Assembly (NCBI GenBank): GCA_964188305.1
Contig: OZ076886.1
DNA: 64,000 nt
Reading direction: 5' to 3' (one strand)
From: Podarcis bocagei
Taxonomy: Eukaryota
Shown here: one piece after another, positions 3,411 to 56,740 of the stretch
Layout of the letters: each line of letters opens with the position of its first letter
How positions within the stretch are numbered: position 1 is the stretch's first letter
Translations under genes and position numbers: made by a program
Notes under the pieces: generated by a model
The model's input: the letters and a program-made list of their open reading frames with translations, nothing else
Told to the model about the DNA's origin: nothing
Database searches by the model: none

Positions 3411-3770
3411 GTAAGTGAGCAGCCACCCATATGCTCTTTACTGCAGCAACCGGGATTCATACAGTACGTAGCATATTGCTAAAATCTCTGTTGGCAAACA
3501 TGGTTAAAATCCAAGCTTGGAAGGAGGTGCATAAGATGTTGAAGAAGTTGTTTCCCCACCTCCACAACCTAATTGGATTGCAGCCGTATTACGCAAGACC
3601 GGGTGACTACAATGGGCTCCTATGTTGAGTCATATTCTGGGGCTTGTAACCCCAGAAGCCAGCATCATACAAATCTGGGCAGCATGTATGTGCTCAAACA
3701 CCATCTTCCTGATTTGCTGCCATCCCATCTGGTCCTTCCCTCTACAAATCCATCGTGTTAAAGTATAGCC

Positions 3771-3906
3771 CAGGCATAGGCAAACTCAGCCCTCCAGATG
3801 TTTTGGGACTACAACTCCCATCATCCCTAGCAAGCAGAACCAGTGGTCAGGGATGATGGGAATTGTAGTCTCAAAACATCTGGAGGGCCAAGTTTGCATG
3901 TGCCTG
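3771..3906. mobile_element. Palindromic hAT-type MITE (related copies ~15750-15882, 37880-37980, 40755-40875, 47235-47365, 53352-53490)
   Basis: CAGG...CCTG termini, long inverted arms (CCCTCCAGATGTTTTG.GACTACAA.TCCCATCATCCCT and its reverse complement), near 8-bp TSD gtatagcc/gtgtagcc. Confidence 0.75.
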
Positions 3907-5275
3907 GTGTAGCCATTATTCCCCTTTCTTATCTTAAGGAGCAAGACCTTTCCAGAAAGGGGTCTGGGGTCCCCAGGATGCTGGGATGAGCTCTCTTAAT
4001 AAGTTGATTGTTGATTGGTTAGCCTGGAGAGCTGGATAGTAATAAGGTGGTAATAAATTATCTGAGTATGGACTTTAGTTTTGGATTACAGTATACACCT
4101 CCTTTAACGTTTGTAAAAAAATTGGAGTAGATAAGTTTTAGAGAAATAAGAGAATTCCCTGCAACTTCAAATGTAATGATAACTTTAGATGAGAATAGTA
4201 TAAGGAACAAGATGGCCAAACTACTTACACTGGACAAAACTCACGAGTAATCATCACCTGAGAACCCACAGCCCAATTGGACTGGAGCCCTGTTCTGTAA
4301 TAAGCATAATTCGGCTCCAACATGATTTGCTTCATTCAGACACAAATGGCTGAAAGGGGAAAGGGAATTTGCAAATATTATATAAGGGTTGGATGTAGTT
4401 TTCCTACAACTAGAATATTTGTGGTTGAGGGGCAGGTGTATTATTATTTTTTTTGGTAAACAATAAAATTAGATGATTTAGACTTTCTTGATTAAAAAAA
4501 TGTGGTTGTCTTCACAAAGAATGAGGGCAGAGGGGAGTTCAATTGAGTTCCATGCATCCGAGGAACCATTTTGTTTTCTCTTTTACATTTCATGTGATAT
4601 TTCCAAGTGCATGCAAAACGTTAGATATACAGCATCAGAATTCTCTTGCACAACTAGAGGTTGCCAGAAATGCAAATCTTGCAGCACCCACTGTGCAATA
4701 TTGCCCTGCAGGGATAAAGAAGCAGTAGGGAAACAACAAATAAGTGGGGGAGGGAGAGAATGGATAGAAAAGAGGTAGGAACTGTCCCAGGGAGCAAGGC
4801 TTCTGTGGTAGGCCAGGAGGTATTCTGAGTAAGAGTCTGGGGAAGAGAAGCCTATATGCCAGTTTGCAAAAAAATATGTGGCTAGTTCTGACCTTGGTCA
4901 TTTGTCCCTGCCACAAGCATGGGTTGTTTTCTCCCTTATATTAATACTGTCAATTCCTATTAACACAGAATCTGCTGCTGTTTAACTACCTGTTTCATAT
5001 ATGCCAGAGCAGCCCCTAGTGGCAATGATCTGGTATTTGCTGGAAATTCTGCTAGCTCTATTGAAGTCGTCTTTGAAGCTCCGCTAGCAGCTGTTGTATT
5101 TGTTGCATTAGGCAAAAATATCCTGAATAGAATTGCCAGCTTGTGACTTGGGGGCGTTTGAGGTAATTCTTAGCCCACTTTCCGATATCTGCTGCGTGGC
5201 GGAGCTGCTAAGTGCTTTGGCACATCTTCTGACGCCTCTAGTGTGGCATATATTCTAACTGCACGTTTCCTTTAG

Positions 5276-7013: not shown

Positions 7014-10000
7014 TAAAAAAATATTCCAGTCAATATTCCAGTAAATGGTCCAGTAAATGACTGGGTCACACTTCAAGGAAAGTCTTATTAAATAAGAAGG
7101 CAGTAATAGCCACCCACACATCAAGTAGGTGCCTAATTTCAGCTGGCAACTAATTCCAGAAGGGTCAGTTGATGTGTCTGATCCAGTTTCCCAGCCATAC
7201 AGTTCTATAGCTTGGATCCTATCTTTCCTTCTGTGAAAGGAACAGAATTCACCCTCATGGAATGGGACTTTTACATCTTCTTCAGCCTGTACCCATCAAA
7301 AACCTGCTCCTGGTGATTGGAAATGGTGTGGGAAATGTTGCAAATGGAATAGGGAGACAGTAGAAGTCCCTTATCATACATGAATGGAGGAGCAACTTCT
7401 ATATGCCCAGAGCTGCTCTTTATAACATTCGCATATATGCCCGGAGTTGCTCTTCTTAAATGGAAGGACTTGAGAGAAGGATCTTAGCAGAAGGTGGGGA
7501 GGTGATTTTTTTTTTTTAAAAAAAAATATCCCTATACACACACACACACACACACACACCTGGGACCCCTTCCATGCTATTCCAGAAAGTCCCCCTACCC
7601 TCTAGAGTGGATTTTCAGAGTTCACAAGGGCTGTATTGGGAAGGGGGGGATGAGCAAAAATGACTTCTCCTAGTATTTTGCTGCAGGATTGTCCTGTAAA
7701 CAAACAAACAAAATGCTCACAGGATCTCTATTTTCATCCCCTGTGTCTCCAGAAATCATAAAGCTGGGTTGTCGGATTTAAGAAATTTTGGTTGCAACCT
7801 AGCAAGGCATTTAATTTTTTCATATTGTTTGATATTAGTACAATCACTGTATTTACTAAGGGTCCATTTTAATCTTCACTGTAGAGACTTAGGAATCATA
7901 GAAGTACAAATCCTCTTGAGTTCTCTCTACTTCACGATCTTCAGTGACTTTAGCACGTCTGGGGGTGGGGATCTTTCCTCACCCCATCCGGTCTGCCTCT
8001 GCTCTGCTAGAACATAGTTTAAATAACTCAAAATATATGCAGGACATGAAAGGAGAAGGCGCGCGAGAGAAAGATAAACAGTTATTATTTATAGCTGCTC
8101 ATTATTTATAACTACTCTTAGAAGAAAAAGAGCACTGTTATAAATAGCTTTCCGAATAATAATAATAATAGGATGGAGATTTACTTCTCTATGGCTTGCA
8201 ATGGAGAACTGGAACACTGTGTTCCAAGAGTGGACTTTGCCTGGTCAGAGGACAATGAAGGCGCCACTACCATTACCCATTTCAATTGGACAGTGGTGAA
8301 TTGGTAGGAAAACTTTATCTTGTGCCAGTGGAAAATCTTAAGCATAAGGACAAGTGGGAATCCTTTTGACAGAGTATAGATCATCAACAAATCCACACAG
8401 CTCTTGAGCACAGAAAGTAACCTTTGGCACAAAATGGCAAATATATAAATATGTGTCCATAAATACATTACATAGCCATATTGGATATCTTTCATGGAAA
8501 TGGGAGAGCAGAGGCCATTCATAGCTTTACAAAAGAAACAGGAGTTTATATAGATTGATATCGTTCTCACCTCTTCTTGGAAAATGTCTTTATCAAGGGG
8601 GAAACTTGGAAAAGCCCCTTTGATGTGCTGCAGCATGAAAGTCCCCCACCCCCACCCCGCAGTTTTTATCAAATAGTACAACTCTGTTTTTGCTTGACAC
8701 TGAGATGTTTGGTTTGGTATGGATTGGTTGTTGTTGTTTTAAAAACACACACAATAGCAGTTTATGCACCTGTCTTTTTGTCTTTTCTATGGGTGTATTT
8801 GATCCCCTGCTTGGGAGACTATTCACAGCTCCCCACAGTGTTGGGGGTTTTTTTGAGGGGTGTGTGAAGGTATTTCAAATAGATACGATTTTAGTATAGT
8901 GCAGAGGTGGCTCCACAGACCAGAGCTGCATCAGCATCTGCCTTGAAAGGTGGATGGGGCTGCCCACCTGTCAGTCACATAATGTAACAAATGACATCAA
9001 GTGTTTTGGTCAGAAAAAAGCCTTCCTTTTAGCAGTTCCTTGCTGTTTGTGAGGTGCTTTGAAGCCCTGACTTTGGCAGTTCAAAGAGCAGCCAAACTGA
9101 GAAACCTTGGATGCACTCGGTGCTTTTTTTCTGTAGGTACTCAAGGGTACAGAGTATTGGCATCTTCCTTTTTCAAATGTTAAAAGTTTGTTGCAGGGAG
9201 GAGTTCTCTCACACATCTAGACCAAGCTGGACTGAGCTCCCCACATATAATCCAATGTATGAGGGGTTCAGTCCAACTTAGCACTGAGTTTGGATGCACA
9301 ACAGAGTTTCTTGCAAGGGGTGCCTTTGCCTATGGAAATTTCATGGAGGGGATAGTATGGCCAGGAGGAAGAGTGGGGGGAGCCTGAGGATTTGGAGCTA
9401 GAGGAGTCTGTGAATGATCCCAGTAGGGTGGAACTGGGGTCTCAAGAAGTGTCTGGTGCCAAGGAAAGGCTAGGAGACCTGGAAGGGGAAGATTCAGACC
9501 CTGAGGAAGACCAAGCAGATTGTCAAAGGGCTACTTGTTCATCACACCTTATTTATCAGCCTGTTTGTATTGATGGGGCTATGTAGAACAATGGAATATC
9601 TCACTGTGAGGAGTAGCAGAGAAAGATCCTCTTGCAGGTGGATCCTCTTGCATCATAAATACATTTTTTGACTTATTGAAAATTGAAATCTTGCTTTGGC
9701 TTCTGGTAAGAGCTGGGCTAGATTCAGCTGTTTTGACAAGTCGGACAGAGCTGTCCAACCTGGTTCCACATGCCAGGGAGGTGGAGCTGCTTTGTTCCGT
9801 TACACACAACCTATTCTTTCCATCATCACAGGTATATGGGGTTGGGGTTGAAGACACAAGAATTGACCTGTATTACCTTGGTGAGGATTTTCAATAATGA
9901 CTACTCGGCTTGTTGGGTTTTGCAAGTTGAATTATACAATGTGTGAAAACATCTATTGTAATGTGAGATACTGTTCTTTTAAATGATGTATTTCTGCTGG

Positions 10001-15584: not shown

Positions 15585-17331
15585 GTAAGTGAGGATAACG
15601 TGTGTTAAGAAGACAAGGAACAGTGGTGTAAAAAGAAAGTTAGGTGGAACAAAGTCCCTGCTGTTTTAGCTAAGGAGAAAACTTAAGTTCGGGAAGCATT
15701 GTTTTGTGAGAGGATAAAGAGAGCACAAATGCTGACTGGCTCACTCCACTTCCCCAATGTGATGCCCTCCAGATGTTGTTGGACTACAACTTCCATCAGT
15801 CCTAGCCAGAATGGCTAATAGCCAAGGATGATAACAGTTGTGTTCCAACAGCATCTGATGGACACCAGGTTGAGGAAGGCTGACTAACTCCCCAAATCTT
15901 AACATTTGGTGTTGATCAGGACTGAATTCATAACAGTTCCTTCCTTCTGGTTATATCACAAATATTTACTACAGACACCCCAAAGTTTAGGTGCTATTGA
16001 TAAGTTCCAGGATTTAGCTTATTCCACGCCCCGCCCCCCCCCCCAACATACATCTGAAAGACAAGAGGAGGAAAAGTATGTAGAGCAATTAAGGAAAAGT
16101 GACCAATTATGCAGGTCTTTGTAATGCTGGAAGAGTCAGACAGGAGTTTAGTATATCAAATTGTCAACACTCCTTGAAGCTGGTTAGTTCAGTGATGTGA
16201 CTTTCTGTGATTAAATTTGTCCATTTCCTCTCTGTTTCCTTGTATTAAATATGTGACTAGCAGAAAGTAGTGCTGGAGGTGCTCTCTACATTCAACACTT
16301 CGTGATTCCATGTAAATTGCATTTTATAAAATACATACTCTCCGATTTGTACACTAGATGGCAGGAGAGATATTCACTACTACTTGGCTCAAAAACCTTG
16401 TTTAAAAAAATCATATGATTTAAAAACAGCATTAGCCTGGGTCTGCTTCTGCATTTGTTCTACTCGAAAACAATATTTGGGGTCTCAGGTAGTAGCAGCA
16501 TTAGAATGATCCATGCTGAAACTGATAAGAGAAGCAGCTTTTCCTGCTGCTTACCAGTATGCTGCAACGTGAGGGTAGCAGTGAGGGCTAGGCAGGGGCG
16601 CTTGATTGGCTCTGCTCATATGACATCATTGCTGCCCTGCTGCACCTCCGCACCATTCTGGTACATGGCAGCAATTCTGCTGCAAGGAGATCAGGTATAT
16701 GGTGCTCCCTGACAGCTACTCCTGGCCAGGAAAGGGAGTTTAACAAAGGGAAGCTATAAAACAAGCATGGATTGCCCATTTGACATAGCAAATAAATATC
16801 CAAAGCTTGGGGCAAAAACTCCATTTTGTTTCCTCACTGAACTGTACTTTTGTTTCTCAGTCCAATGAAATTGAAATTTCAAGAAGTGGGAAACAATATT
16901 TTTCCCTTTGTTCCATGACACAGTTTCTGAATATTTTGATGACTCTTGGCCTCAGTGGCCAGGGAGACTTGGGGAGATTTCCTTGAAGGGAGAGGAGGAC
17001 ACACCTGGGAGGTAGGAAATCAATGGACTGGTTTGTTTCTCAGTGTTTGTCTTACAAACATGCTCCATTGTGAGGCATGCTGTCCAGCTGGATGAGCCCG
17101 CGGTATTTGTTTGAGAACTGTGTTTCACTCCTATTAATAAGGATGGAGAGATCACCATTCACTTCTCTCCTAATGGGTTTGATTTAGCTACACTACATTC
17201 TCTTCGTTCTTAACACCTTGCATGTAGAAACTTGTAGATAACTGCACTTTCACTTCTAAGTACCCTTTAGAGCGAGTGAGTGGGCTTGCAAAAAAAAAGT
17301 TACTCACTGTTCTTTGCTTTGTGTGTTGCAG

Positions 17332-29020: not shown

Positions 29021-29162
29021 NNNNNNNNNNNNNNNNNNNNNNNNNNNNNNNNNNNNNNNNNNNNNNNNNNNNNNNNNNNNNNNNNNNNNNNNNNNNNNNN
29101 NNNNNNNNNNNNNNNNNNNNNNNNNNNNNNNNNNNNNNNNNNNNNNNNNNNNNNNNNNNNNN
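29021..29162. other. Assembly gap (142 N)
   Basis: Run of n. Confidence 1.
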
Positions 29163-32431: not shown

Positions 32432-33013
32432 CCGTATTTTTCGCCCCATAAGACGCACTTTTTCCCCTCCAAAAATGAAGGGGAAATCGGGGTGCGTCTT
32501 ATGGGGCGAATGCCTGCAAGCCTCGCGCGCCCGGCAGGAGGTCCCACCGGGTGCGCGAGGCTTGGGGCGGCAGCGGACTGCTTGCGCGCACCTAGAAGCT
32601 TGGGGCCGGCTGAGCTCAGCCCGCCCCAAGCTTCTAGGTGCGCGCAAGCAGTCCGCTGCCACCCCAAGCCTCGCGCACCCGGTGGGACCTCCTGCCGGGT
32701 GTGCGAGGCTTGGGGCGGCAGCGGACTGCTTGCGTGCACCTAGAAGCTTGGGGCGCGCTGAGCTCAGCACGCCCCAAGCTCCTGGTATAGCACAGCGATC
32801 CGCTAGCCCTGGGAGAGCCCCGCGGCTCTCCCAAGGCTAGCGGACTGCTTGCACGCACGCAGAAGCTTGGGGCGCGCTGAGCTCCGCACGCCCCAAGCTC
32901 CTGGTGTAGCGCAGCGCACCTGGGGGGGTAATAAATTTTTTTCCCTTTATTTCCCCCCCAAAAATCTAGGTGCGTCTTATGGGCCGGTGCGTCTTATGGG
33001 GCGAAAAATACGG
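32432..33013. mobile_element. Tc1/mariner-superfamily (Tc2/Kanga/MER104-like) MITE, 582 bp, GC/CpG-rich palindromic interior
   Basis: Perfect 27-bp TIRs CCGTATTTTTCGCCCCATAAGACGCAC; TA TSD (32430-31, 33014-15); internal copies of the TIR motif; no transposase. Confidence 0.88.
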
Positions 33014-47150: not shown

Positions 47151-47941
47151 CTAAGAACAACAGAGAAGCAAAGGAGTTAAATTGATGTAAAGTCTGGGAA
47201 ATGGATCATTCCAGGAGAGAAAATTCTGTAGAACAGCAATGAGAAATTTGTGGTCCTCCAAATTTTGTTGGACATCAACTTCCATCAGCCCCAGTCATAT
47301 GGTCAGTGGCCAGGGATGATGGGTGTTGTAATTCAAAAACATCTGGAGGACTACAGGTTTCTCATCTCATCTGCAGAAGATCACTCTAGCACATAACTCA
47401 GGGCTCATTCAGACTTCATTTTGTGCCATGTTTTTAGGCACAGGTCCAGGCTCTAAAGCTCTGTGTCTAAGCATGGTGTGGTTTTTTTGTTTTTTGTTTG
47501 TCTTGGTGCTTTCCCCAGGAAAACCTGCATTTTACTGCTGAATCAGAGCCAATCGGCAATTGGGCTTTCCATGGATTGCTGTTTGCTTTGATTCATACCT
47601 AATTAACATATCCTCTCCTATCTTTCTAAACATTCCTACAAGCCCTCACTGTTTTGGAAACCAGACGTGTTTATCAGACATTTGTGCTGACCTATTATTA
47701 GTCATTACTTAAATGGAACCTCTGGTTACCTGATGCTGAGGGCAACCAATATGACAAAATGATGATCTCCTTTATGCTGTCTTTGTAAGCTTACAAAGGT
47801 ACCTAGGTATGCTAGGCTTGATAGTCTCCAGTGGTAGTCCCCATTCCCTCAAAATTCCCAGGACCAGAGAGGCCATCCAGAGCACCACACCTTAAGGTGC
47901 TGCCAGTGAAAGGAAATTCCCCTTCCCTTGTACATATAAAA

Positions 47942-52236: not shown

Positions 52237-52327
52237 CTGGGCTGATCGCAGACTCGTGCAACATTTTCAAGCATGCTTCTTTATAGTTAAGCAAATTCAC
52301 TCTTATTTTCTCATAAGATCCTTCAGC
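52237..52327 (-). CDS. GLP2R: GLP2R exon 2 (AEGSYEKIRVNLLNYKEACLKMLHESAISP-G)
   Basis: cttgcag acceptor, gtaaga donor, 91 nt; ECD helix with first Cys (YKEAC). Confidence 0.9.
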
Positions 52328-53563
52328 CTGCAAGCAAAGAAAACATTGTATATGAACCATTTGAATATGGAAGTTAGTTGCTTCCCAAAAGGTGCGTTAA
52401 GAGAACGAGGTCAACATTTTATATCTGTATTCTGGCAACAGCTTGCCCAATTTGAGTGCCCCAACACCACACAGTAACAACCCACACTTCTCCCACTAAG
52501 CTATTCTCTTGGGGAAACATTTCTTCCAACACATTTCCCTCAAGAAAGTAAATAGGACATGTTAATTGCCAGTAACACAATGTTTGACATGTCAGCTCTT
52601 AGGCACTGTGGCAGTTTAGTGAATGGCTGATTTTTAACATTGGACATGAAACAAAATGTTACCGGATGACAGATTGAGACAGCTAAAGTGGAGAGGCTAA
52701 ACTTAAATGAGAGGTTGTCTTCAGGAGTTGCATCCAGTCAAATATAATAACCCTTCCCTTAGTATGTGAGGTGACACATTGTCAGTTTACCAGTGGCCAA
52801 GCAGTCCAAAGGACGCAAGTTCATATTGGCACCTCAATGCTCTCTTCTTACCCCGTTTTTATCTCCTAGCAATGTTCTTTAGTTTTCTTTATTTAATTAC
52901 ACCCTGAATAAAATATGGGGGGGGCCGCACGTAAGCCCCACCCTGCATAATCGATCACAAGACACAGTGTGCACACACCATTTGAATGGCAATGCCCATC
53001 AACTCCCCCCCCCCCCGTCACCTCAAATATGTTACTGGGAGGGCCAAAGGTACCTTGGCCCCTAGGAGTTAGCTTCTGCACTCTTTAATCATTCCTTCAG
53101 GTTCTTGCTTACCTCCATACTGAGAATGGATTCTGGTGTGGTGGGAACATAAGAAGAGGCATGCTCAATCAGATCAAACACTGATCTAGCCCAGCATCAT
53201 GCTTCACACAGTGGCGAACCAGATGTTTATAGAAATCCTACAAGCAGGAGTCTTCTCCCACTTGTGCTAATCTGTGGCTGGCAATTCAAGGGGCCATTGA
53301 TAGGCAGATTCATGGAGGGCAAGTCCAGTTGTCTTTGAGAGCCATCTACTCAGCCTTGTCCAACCTGGTAACCTCCAGATAATTTTGGAGTACAATTCCC
53401 ATCATCCCTGACCATTTGCCATGTTGGCTGAAGCAGATGGGAGTTGTAGTCCAAAATATCTTCTGGAGGGCACTAAGTTGAGGGAAGGTCAGAGTAGCTG
53501 AAAGTGACAGCTGATCCTCGTTGTGAGGAATGCTGTGGAAGAGGACAGAAGATGGAATTAGCA

Positions 53564-53830
53564 GTAGATAGGTAGCCGTGTTGGTCTGCCATAGTCAAAA
53601 TAAAAAAATTCCTTCCAGTAGCACCTTAAAGACCAACTAAGTTAGTTCTTGGTATGAGCTTTCGTGTGCATGCACACTTCTTCAGATACACTGAAACAGA
53701 AGTTGCCAGATCCTTCTATATAGTGAGAAGGTGGGGAGGGGTGTTACTCAGAAGGGAGGGTGCGAATGGGAGATTGGCAGATAGCTGAGAGAGCCTCTTG
53801 ACGACTCTTAACGACTGTAATAGGTCTTAC
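53564..53830 (-). mobile_element. Penelope-like element terminal-repeat fragment with 12-bp target-site duplication
   Basis: Flanked by identical ATGGAATTAGCA at 53552-53563 and 53831-53842. Contains the reptile PLE terminal pattern CTGAAGAAG...CGAAAGCTCAT...TTGGTCTTTAAGGTGCTAC...AACACGGCTACC on -. Confidence 0.8.
53652..53689 (-). ncRNA. Minimal type I hammerhead ribozyme motif (PLE-type)
   Basis: - strand GTAT-CTGAAGA-A-GTGTGC AT GCACAC-GAAA-GC-TC-ATAC: stem I GTAT/ATAC, core CUGANGA, stem II, GAAA, palindromic AGCU stem III, NUH = CUC. Confidence 0.75.
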
Positions 53831-54227
53831 ATGGAATTAGCATAAGGGATATCCATATTAATGGTGTTTATAGACTTGTTATAATTTCTGGAATGTATTG
53901 AAAGACTGGAATGTATTACTGATGTCTTTGGGCCCCTTTTTGTTTCTGCTTCAATATTTCATAGCTGTTTTCTGTGATGGTTTTGTTTTATTCTTGATTA
54001 TGTATTTTAATAACATAAAAGAAGAAGAAAAATGAACATTTTTTTAGGACACTTAATATAAATCCAGTTTTCTAAGGTCTCCCAAACACAACTGTAAATA
54101 ATTGCATCCGCTGTGGCTTTGCTAACTGCTGTATTTAGATAGTTGAAATCATCCTCTAAATACTAACTAGAGGTGATTCACCAGACCTAAGCCAAAATGT
54201 CAGGTGTAAGTGGAGCCTACTTTTAGA

Positions 54228-54350
54228 CCTCTGGCAGTATTGGCTTAGTCCATGAAGTCTTATTACACCACAAAAAATGTGTCTGCTTTTAAGGAGCCAT
54301 AGAACTCTTGGATATTTCTGCTGCAACAAACTGACATGGCTACCCCTCTG
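54228..54350 (+). mobile_element. Degenerate Penelope-like terminal remnant
   Basis: ...ctttTAAGGAGCCATAGAACTC...GCTGCAACAAACTGACATGGCTACCCCTCTG resembles the PLE terminus; the upstream hammerhead core is decayed. Confidence 0.5.
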
Positions 54351-54429
54351 GGAACAGTTGTATTCAGGCTGTAATCCTACATGCAACTCTTACCTGGGAA
54401 TAGGTCATCTTGGATTTAATCCAGTGAAG

Positions 54430-54640
54430 TTTCTGCACAAGCAAAATGACTTCCACTCACACAACAGAACACCCCTCAATCCCACGTACCCCCATATCTG
54501 CTCTAGAGAGTTGGGAGAATCCCCAGAGCAAATCTGGGGCATGTGTGGGGCACTAGTGGATAGGGATAGGGAGGGGAAGTTCTGTTGCATGAGTGGAATC
54601 TGATTCTCATACACAATGATTTAGTTGGATACAACCCAGT
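54430..54640. mobile_element. Old palindromic MITE-like repeat (related decayed copies ~7215-7680, 19350-19500, 51960-52130, 61220-61420)
   Basis: C-rich arm / ATCTGCTC...GAGCAAAT hairpin / G-rich arm architecture recurs across the window. Confidence 0.45.
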
Positions 54641-54664
54641 GGGACTTACATCTGAGTAAGCGTG

Positions 54665-55160
54665 TATATCTTAAAAAGCAGAGACATCACCTTGCTGACA
54701 AAGGTCCATATAATTAAAGCCATGGTTTTCCCAGTAGTGATGTATGGAAGTGAGAGCTGGACCATAAAGAAGGCTGATCGCCAAAGAATTGATGCTTTTG
54801 AATTATGGTGCTGGAGAAGACTCTTGAGAGTCCCATGGACTGCAAGAAGAACAAACCTCTCCATTCTTAAGGAAATCAGCCCTGAGTTCTCACTGGAAGG
54901 ACAGATCCTGAAGCTGAGGCTCCAATACTTTGTCCACCTCAAGACTTCCTGGAAAAGACCCTGATGTTGGGAAATATGGAGGGCACAAGGAGAAGGGTAT
55001 GGCAGAGGACGAGATGATTGGACAGTGTTCTCGAAGCTACGAACGTGAGTTTGACCAAACTGTGGAAGGCAGTGGAAGACAGAAGTGCCTGGCATGCTCT
55101 GGTCCATGGGATTATGAAGAGTCAGAAATGACTAAATAACTAAACAACAATAACAAGAAC
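54665..55160 (+). mobile_element. BovB/RTE LINE 3' fragment
   Basis: ILKSRDITLLTKVHIIKAMVFPVVMYGSESWTIKKADRQRIDAFELWCWRRLLRVPWTARRTNLSILKEISPE is the BovB ORF C-terminus; ends in a (CAA)-like tail. Confidence 0.92.
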
Positions 55161-55344: not shown

Positions 55345-56740
55345 ATTTCCTACTGTATCGCTAACCAAGTGCACCACGTAATCCCATACATTCTAGAAAA
55401 TGAGATAAAACAATGGATACACTTGGAGAGACACAGACCATGCTTAAAGCATGGAAGGAAGAAGCAGGCAAACTGTCCCCAACCCCAACCCCATCCCCAC
55501 TAATCCCACTAGCTCACCACCCACTTATCCACCACACAGCACAAATTCTCCAGATAAAAACCTGGCAAGCCAAAGGCCTATATGGCCTAGCAGACCTCTA
55601 CAAAAATAACAAATCCGTAATGACACAAGAAATTCAAAACAAACTAGGGGACACCCAAATACCCTGGCTAACACACCACCAACCGCACGCCTTCCTAAAC
55701 AACCCAGTAGTAAAATCAACAGCCACTAGGCCCTTGACCACCTTCTAAAACTGTCTCATAACAACAACGGGACATGGCAAGGGGATGGTATCCACAATAT
55801 ACAAAACACTGCTCCAAAGCCCCACAAACCCCCTTGATGCAATCAAAAAACAATGGGAGGACAACCTAGACTATGAAATTAACTCCACCCAATGGACTAG
55901 ATTGGGTCTAAACCTCCATTTAAATCCATATCGCGAAAAGAAAAGAACTCACTCTGAAACTCACTTACAGATGGTACCTAACACCATGGAAACTGGCGCT
56001 GATACGCCTAGGAACCTCACTAAAATGCTGGAGACGATGCACCTCCACAGGCACATACCTCCACATATGGTGGGAATGCCCCAAACCCAACTCTTCTGGA
56101 CAGCAGTCATATAAGAAATAAGCAAAATAACTAAGCAGGTACTAGAAGTCATCCCAGAACTGACCCTACTGAACATTTTCCAAAATAACAATGCCCACTC
56201 ACACTATAAAAAGCTCATAACCCATCTACTCTCAGCAGACAGAGACATCATAGCCAGACAATGGAGGGACCTGTCAGGATTAAACATGGAACACTGGTAT
56301 CAAGTAGTATGGGAAACAGAGTTAAACAGCTAACCAATAGACTGAAACTGACACAAATACAGTGGTACCTCGGGTTACAGACGCTTCAGGTTACAGAGTC
56401 TGCTAACCCAGAAATAGTACCTCAGGTTAAGAACTTTGCTTCAGGATGAGAACAGAAATTGTGCGGTACCTCAGGTTAAGAACAGTTTCAGATTAAGAAC
56501 AGACCTCCAGAATGAATCAAGTTCTTAACCCGAGGTACCACTGTAGAAGAAGACGCCTTCACCCCGGTATGGCTCCCTTTATCACATACACAGCCCAACA
56601 AGACAACAACACGAACCCACAGACAGCATACAATTCAATATGGCTAACTTAACCCAACAACCCCCCCTCCCTGAAGAAAGAGACAATGCATGTGCTTTTG
56701 TAAACGAGGAAAATCTTTAATAAAAATTATTTTAAAAAAC
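55345..56740 (+). mobile_element. L1/Tx1-type LINE 3' fragment (frameshifted ORF2 C-terminus), interrupted by a MITE
   Basis: A/C-rich strand bias; YRWYLTP...KCWRRC...GTYLHIWWECP zinc-knuckle motif ~55965-56085; AATAAA plus A-rich tail ~56720-56740. Confidence 0.8.
56360..56543. mobile_element. Tigger/pogo-like MITE, internally deleted, nested in an L1-type LINE
   Basis: TA-CAGTGGTACCTCGGG...CCCGAGGTACCACTG-TA interrupting LINE sequence. Confidence 0.85.

Follow-up and report, generated by a model that had tools for sequence, protein, structure and literature searches.

A minimal hammerhead motif, very probably a passenger, in a recent Penelope-like insertion sense to GLP2R in Podarcis bocagei

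The minus strand of the window analysed here, a 64,000-nucleotide stretch of the Podarcis bocagei genome (assembly GCA_964188305.1, contig OZ076886.1), contains at 53652-53689 a motif that is, on its sequence, a standard minimal hammerhead ribozyme (min-HHR) of the type known from Penelope-like retroelements (PLEs). It is present in what is likely intron 1 of GLP2R because a recent fragment of such a retroelement landed there, and it is very probably a passenger: a standard PLE hammerhead within an unfixed, 5'-truncated insertion, predicted to misfold, with no partner nearby, and expected to be spliced out uncut. As a regulator of GLP2R, the motif very probably does not matter. The features of the insert are as follows.

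53564..53830, minus strand: insert of 267 bp, a 5'-truncated copy that keeps the end (pLTR plus tail) of a likely Neptune-type PLE, recognised by 100%-identical copies elsewhere and by longer loci
53564..53597, minus strand: PLE 'tail' extension, ~34 bp, delimited by the bimodal 3' ends of 100 copies
53552..53563, unstranded: target-site duplication (TSD) copy at the element 3' end; a direct repeat, with one copy at the empty site
53831..53842, unstranded: TSD copy at the element 5' end; a direct repeat, with one copy at the empty site
53652..53689, minus strand: hammerhead motif, minimal type I, by sequence; its architecture matches the min-HHR consensus as given in PMC4209133
53689-86, minus strand: stem I 5' arm GUAU (this and the next eight features read from the sequence)
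53685-79, minus strand: CUGAAGA core box
53678, minus strand: extra A after the core box
53677-64, minus strand: stem II, 14 nt
53663-60, minus strand: GAAA core box
53660-53657, minus strand: AGCU palindrome, in place of helix III
ending at 53656, minus strand: GCUC, with C17 at 53656
between 53656 and 53655, minus strand: predicted cut, after C17
53655-52, minus strand: stem I 3' arm AUAC
53690..53694, minus strand: initiator-like TCAGT, a putative start from the 5'-end pile-up of copies, overlapping an acceptor-like pyrimidine tract ending in CAG (AG at 53692-53691)
53691..53706, minus strand: upstream stretch that, in predicted folds, forms an anti-core hairpin with the catalytic core
53716..53722, minus strand: TATA-like box TATATAG, a predicted pLTR core promoter by sequence, found in 7/7 subfamily rows reaching that far upstream

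Read from 53689 to 53652, the motif is GUAU-CUGAAGA-A-GUGUGCAUGCACAC-GAAA-GCUC-AUAC, exactly as an earlier note on this DNA had it, with the predicted cut where that note placed it. No other hammerhead core with a stem II occurs in the 64-kb window. The core elements CUGANGA ... GAAA ... UH occur in the correct order, helix I comprises 4 bp (GUAU/AUAC), inside the 4-5 bp range of min-HHRs, and both the G10.1-C11.1 pair in helix II and the extra base after A9 are present. An AGCU palindrome at 15.1-16.1 / 15.2-16.2 replaces helix III, and every min-HHR sequence feature that could be tested is found. The 14-nt stem II (53664-53677) is a perfect palindrome over its full length; contrary to the earlier description, a 2-nt loop cannot close, and the isolated 38-mer is predicted to form stem I and, below a 4-nt loop, a stem II of 5 bp (-6.8 kcal/mol; stem II probability 0.98, stem I 0.64-0.73).

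A chance match to the hammerhead core would accord with three null results. An Rfam scan of 53000-54500 at E<=5, the kind of model search proposed in the earlier note, returned eight hits, none to a hammerhead family; the 38-mer folds no more stably than its shuffles (z -0.44); and the family is too uniform for covariation, with single changes in 100 listed cores and 19 variant rows, none of them compensatory by eye. Because no Rfam hammerhead was returned and stability is no better than that of shuffles, the identification rests on core sequence, architecture and family context. These make a chance match exceedingly improbable: the motif is located in the pLTR of an element encoding RT and GIY-YIG domains, and of the unselected PLE min-HHR features described in PMC4209133, the four open to checking from a single sequence or family are all found (family context, extra base after A9, G10.1-C11.1 and palindromic 15.2-16.2). 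The exact 34-nt motif, moreover, has 9,494 copies in the genome (4,765 + 4,729), against none for the reversed control.

The family to which the insert belongs is large. A DNA search of the same genome gave 870 candidates, of which 40 were scored; among the 41 matches listed, 16 were identical over all 267 bp, the window copy included. The 22-mer downstream of the cut occurs 12,504 times in the genome, and a relaxed core pattern 13,330 times, against 62 for its control. At 28/29 other fetched loci, common element sequence runs on upstream and stops at differing points, the 3' end staying fixed, which rules out that the 267 bp are a fixed-length non-autonomous unit. Longer copies contain an open reading frame carrying RVT_1 (E 3.7e-12), plus a GIY-YIG domain at its C terminus (E 1.8e-5, above the cut-off), bearing out the Penelope-like origin proposed earlier. 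In tandem copies, this ORF begins ~11 nt past the tail end, with an ATG ~100 nt downstream of the hammerhead. The family displays 5' truncation, inverted 5' copies, an optional 30-40-bp tail and a TSD, the hallmarks of EN+ PLEs. A C-x4-C-x2-C linker stands between RT and GIY-YIG, and since this matches the CX2-5CxxC form given for Neptune and Nematis (PMC8557442), and Neptune and Poseidon are the only PLE clades reported in vertebrates according to bioRxiv 10.64898/2026.07.22.740005, the element is likely a Neptune. Many identical copies and long open frames make the family look recently active, so element protein could be present in some cells.

Retrozyme-like arrays, short direct tandem repeats of pLTR-ORF start, occur at C4:103250686-103251139 (212-bp spacing, three copies) and C1:6520923-6521282 (330-bp spacing, two copies), and cis dimers could form in such direct tandem arrays. 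Older subfamily variants, seen among 17 fetched loci, have U instead of C at the core end, and two copies break the AGCU palindrome; at two variant loci (L160 and L166) the U-G pair of the anti-core hairpin is changed to C-G.

The insert is flanked by a perfect 12-bp direct repeat (53552-63 and 53831-42). Empty-site data came from five DNA runs of related individuals, covering four samples, three studies and three organism labels. In 4/4 runs, 53551 is joined to 53831, with 279 bases skipped and 12 letters common to both sides; in the fifth, a single unbroken contig crosses an identical empty site. Because the exact empty site is found in 5/5 runs, the 12-mer counts as a genuine duplication, and the insertion as unfixed and recent; its recency the earlier note had already suspected from the repeat. 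The filled junction was not seen among the rows listed from DNA runs. In one run (X1), a contig breaks exactly at 53831, which would fit a filled allele; a second run of the same sample (X2) spans the empty site. Across the family, duplications of 9-18 bp were found at 35/76 sampled insertions, compared with 0/75 shifted controls at a threshold of at least 7 bp. The insert starts with a donor-like GTAAGA, and junctions show no sign of its use. The insertion is a clean polymorphic marker and, with heterozygous carriers, would provide a natural experiment on whether host pre-mRNA is ever cut by PLE minimal hammerheads.

The host gene was placed by homology, with the following features.

52237..52327, minus strand: GLP2R exon 2, with a phase-0 acceptor and a GTAAG donor, from tblastn matches of homologues P0003, P0005 and P0006
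50399..50524, minus strand: GLP2R exon 3, approximate bounds, hormone-binding domain; best PDB match 7d68_R, the GLP-2 receptor (E 2.3e-16)
L034:2025-2093, minus strand: candidate for the first coding exon of GLP2R (exon 1), with 23 codons, KQ at the end and GTAAGA following, by pattern; candidate donor at C2 about 94,988,024

Two minus-strand exons have 7d68_R as best match (E 2.3e-16 and 5.1e-15), and coding exons placed by homologues run from 52327 down to ~37420. Exon 2 has no GLP2R match in PDB and was matched by homologues in tblastn; it (52327-52237) is without a start codon or signal peptide. An upstream scan for exon 1 gave five candidates, the best of which, ~2 kb past the window, ends in a hydrophobic run, KQ and GTAAGA. 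This candidate resembles, by eye, the exon 1 ends of homologues P0005 and P0018; neither PDB nor tblastn (E<0.05) gave a match for it. Exon 1 probably lies just outside the window, the candidate being assigned by pattern. Given the minus-strand exons, the insert is oriented sense to GLP2R; with this candidate, intron 1 would measure 13.7 kb and likely holds the insert, whose predicted cut (53655) is 1,328 nt ahead of the exon 2 acceptor (52327). The orientation, the ~1.3-kb distance and, with probability, the intron 1 placement of the earlier note all hold. Further upstream are a CpG island (63% GC, 72 CpG in 1 kb) ~7 kb beyond candidate exon 1 (L034 about 9000-10000) and a second family copy with an intact core in the same orientation, ~11 kb past the window end and upstream of candidate exon 1 (L035:1246-1358). 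No RNA run was listed as containing the locus. Three RNA runs of a related organism, in the 6-12% of each that was read, gave zero reads on exons 2-3, which leaves them uninformative on GLP2R splicing or expression. Family reads occur there on both strands, and 90-97% of them continue into other flanks. These reads show no pile of ends at 53656/53655, with only 53704 listed, in libraries that are fragmented and from another organism and so carry no weight here.

Within GLP2R RNA, the hammerhead is predicted to misfold. With 100-200 nt of real flank, the predicted probability of stem I falls to 0.02 and that of stem II to 0.24-0.32, and stem I stays <=0.07 for all 5' starts at or upstream of insert position 128; these are equilibrium, protein-free predictions. 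In the predictions, element sequence lying upstream pairs with the catalytic core, the anti-core hairpin reaching -12.9 compared with -6.8 kcal/mol for the hammerhead fold, and the earlier suggestion of a self-cleaving site in the pre-mRNA is not supported. That the hairpin is an evolved switch is unsupported, as stem I drops equally far with 179 and 132 of 300 shuffled upstream sequences, and 39 and 26 of 300 block the core as much. Since shuffled upstream sequence disrupts stem I equally in about half of 300 cases, the disruption reflects a weak fold and not a demonstrated switch.

Partners for the motif are similarly disfavoured. The window holds no second core, the following 10 kb hold none either, and the closest one is ~9 kb upstream of candidate exon 1. 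The AGCU duplex is predicted at -3.9 kcal/mol (Kd about 2 mM), whereas the predicted co-fold of two copies runs through the palindromic 14-bp stem II at -25.2 kcal/mol, with an unpaired AGCU motif at either end; activation in trans by another PLE transcript, proposed earlier, is not supported. Hammerhead variants of this sort are said, in the title of a 2016 study by Lunse et al., to cleave as dimers. In PMC4209133, Cervera & de la Pena describe no cleavage of PLE min-HHR monomers and 'some, though low' cleavage of dimers and trimers, and a review gives very low rates even for dimers (PMC6765202), so that the efficient dimer cleavage assumed in the earlier note is not upheld. In an Anolis PLE, according to PMC11167929, the ribozyme cut only with the element protein, in vitro; cleavage was dispensable for insertion, and the dominant substrate was unprocessed RNA. 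For cleavage to occur here at all, either another copy in cis or the element protein would be required.

That the hammerhead nevertheless cuts GLP2R pre-mRNA, alone or AGCU-paired with another PLE transcript and perhaps helped by protein, thereby lowering expression of the filled allele, is very improbable. Its core is intact and sense to GLP2R ahead of exon 2, family RNA on both strands in a related species means that partners exist, and a PLE protein switched on its hammerhead in vitro (PMC11167929). Intronic ribozymes can also influence host mRNA: that of CPEB3 does so with a half-life of 2-3 min over 9,931 nt, as reported in PMC10919898. Such cutting is opposed by the misfolding predicted in real flanks, by the millimolar AGCU pairing and the preference of copies for the stem II palindrome, and by the little cleavage that even covalent dimers show (PMC4209133). 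Where CPEB3 needs its 2-3 min half-life over 9.9 kb, only 1.3 kb remains here. Fixation of the CPEB3 kind is not found at the GLP2R site, which is empty in all five DNA runs, and the motif is one of ~10^4 copies; the modulation of receptor expression imagined earlier is accordingly not supported. Judged from the folding model, cutting of the gene's RNA is unlikely, and the intron copy would be spliced out uncut.

An effect on GLP2R without cleavage, in which a sense TATA/initiator promoter or an acceptor-like site gives an internal start or a cryptic exon before exon 2, is also improbable. The window copy retains the TATA-like box, which is present in only 26/100 sampled copies, and carries TCAGT with a pyrimidine tract ending in CAG (53706-53690, minus strand). 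Precedents have been described: TATA and Inr motifs in the pLTRs of rotifer PLEs (PMC3846280), and an intron end at helix I in D. virilis Penelope (PMC4209133). Against such an effect, the insert shows no strong donor downstream, by eye, and is unfixed. An enhancerless core promoter in a heavily repeated element is likely to be silenced, which counts against a promoter effect on GLP2R. To go by these motifs, they may be a slightly likelier route to an effect on the gene than cleavage is.

The passenger reading, to which we return, fits how copies of the family end. The census covered the 100 matches heading the list for the 22-mer that lies downstream of the cut, a non-random sample from the first 4.8 Mb of contig C1. 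Their 5' ends fall upstream of insert position 1 in 16 copies, at 1-134 in 13, at 135-146 in 36 (20 of these at 140-142), at 147-165 in 23 and at 166-203 in 12. Ends within 3 nt of the cut (position 176) number 2/100 and are not enriched (p 0.64). The pile-up lies at the 5' edge of the hammerhead, ~30 nt behind the TATA-like box, at TCAGT. Because copies start at this edge and only 2/100 near the cut, the templates appear uncleaved, and the simplest reading places the start of element RNA 2-3 nt before stem I, with the RNA being copied uncleaved. The 3' ends are bimodal, 56 at insert 227-243 and 44 at 261-269, and 60/100 copies stand in 30 head-to-head pairs, 28 of which have exactly one tailed arm. 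Most of the 100 copies are pieces of 90-130 bp. Five start exactly at the first base of the palindromic stem II, all in fold-back pairs, for which reason the palindrome may seed inversions or RNA dimers. The window copy reaches past the TATA-like box and so would derive from read-through RNA: the element endonuclease would have nicked the site, and RT would have copied 267 nt of this RNA, uncleaved, beginning at the tail end.

The 5'-end pile-up could instead stem from spliced templates or stalling of RT, though this is unlikely. An acceptor-like CAG coincides with the peak, and the junctions of the head-to-head pairs (60/100 copies) are blurred by microhomology. However, junctions upstream of 140-141 share no exon beyond one or two letters, by eye; the peak keeps the G of AG (11 starts at 140, two at 141) and lies ~30 nt behind the TATA-like box; and unpaired copies show it too (13/40 at 135-146). 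A transcription start therefore remains the preferred account of the pile-up.

In the element's own cycle, RNA would likely start 2-3 nt before stem I, the context that favours the fold most. Even then the predicted fold is fragile: with a start at insert 139-142, stem I probability is 0.88-0.91 with a 3' end at 182, dropping to <=0.016 at 233 and <=0.035 at 330. A tentative and rather doubtful extension is that the hammerhead is the first structure of the element mRNA and is context-gated, folding from the pLTR start and shut in read-through host transcripts, with protein-assisted cleavage removing a capped 36-nt leader as expression feedback, and copies recording uncleaved templates only. 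If such gating were true, ~10^4 copies could reside in host introns and leave these uncut. What PLE hammerheads do is called unclear in PMC8557442, and a young, uniform family offers a nucleotide-level record of template ends.

Elsewhere in the window, a MITE-like family of short inverted repeats occurs at 53372-53487, 3770-3907, 15749-15886 and 47255-47359, and gives weak microRNA-model hits far below gathering scores. A long, near-perfect inverted repeat spans 32517-32906 (196 bp, 96%), with further internal copies, and a run of 142 N occupies 29021-29162. Remnants at 54646-55131 and 55404-56449 resemble what we take to be RTE/BovB-type and L1-type reverse transcriptase frames.

In the literature, no paper was found on this family or on GLP2R intronic hammerheads; the supplements of PMC4209133, which cover reptile motifs, may contain it or a relative. 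The motif is close to the metazoan PLE min-HHRs as described in that paper, being type I with a helix I of 4-5 bp, a long helix II, an extra base after A9, G10.1-C11.1, a palindromic 15.2-16.2 and a pLTR location; in both, motifs are mostly single, copies truncated and numbers in the thousands per genome, reptiles included (PMC4209133). It differs in that stem II is here a perfect 14-nt palindrome and the family very uniform, with its 9,494 identical 34-mers. With Neptune EN+ PLEs, as described by Craig et al. 2021 (PMC8557442), the element shares a C-terminal GIY-YIG domain, a CX2-5CxxC linker, 5' truncation, an inverted 5' copy and a 30-40-bp tail.

As in CPEB3 (PMC10919898) and the amniote intronic hammerheads (PMC6765202), a self-cleaving type of motif lies on the sense strand of a host intron. 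Those ribozymes are described as conserved single-copy motifs, whereas the GLP2R motif is an unfixed repeat copy in which stem III is impossible alone. The metazoan non-LTR retrozymes likewise carry a type I hammerhead from PLE pLTRs, and about 43% of their copies in Xenopus are intronic (bioRxiv 10.64898/2026.07.22.740005). They are defined there as tandem units, each with a hammerhead, while the window copy is a single truncated monomer.

The nearest functional comparison is with PAc, a Poseidon element of Anolis carolinensis (Frangieh et al. 2024, PMC11167929), which is also a squamate-type EN+ PLE. Its ORF starts at stem II, whereas the present family has a Neptune-type linker and an ATG ~100 nt past the hammerhead. 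The two RT start sites reported for PAc bracket the tail and match the bimodal 3' ends seen here; its substrate is described as uncleaved RNA, with no read ends at the cut site, and the copy ends of the present family are alike. If confirmed genome-wide, this record of ends would extend the in vitro Anolis Poseidon result to a second clade.
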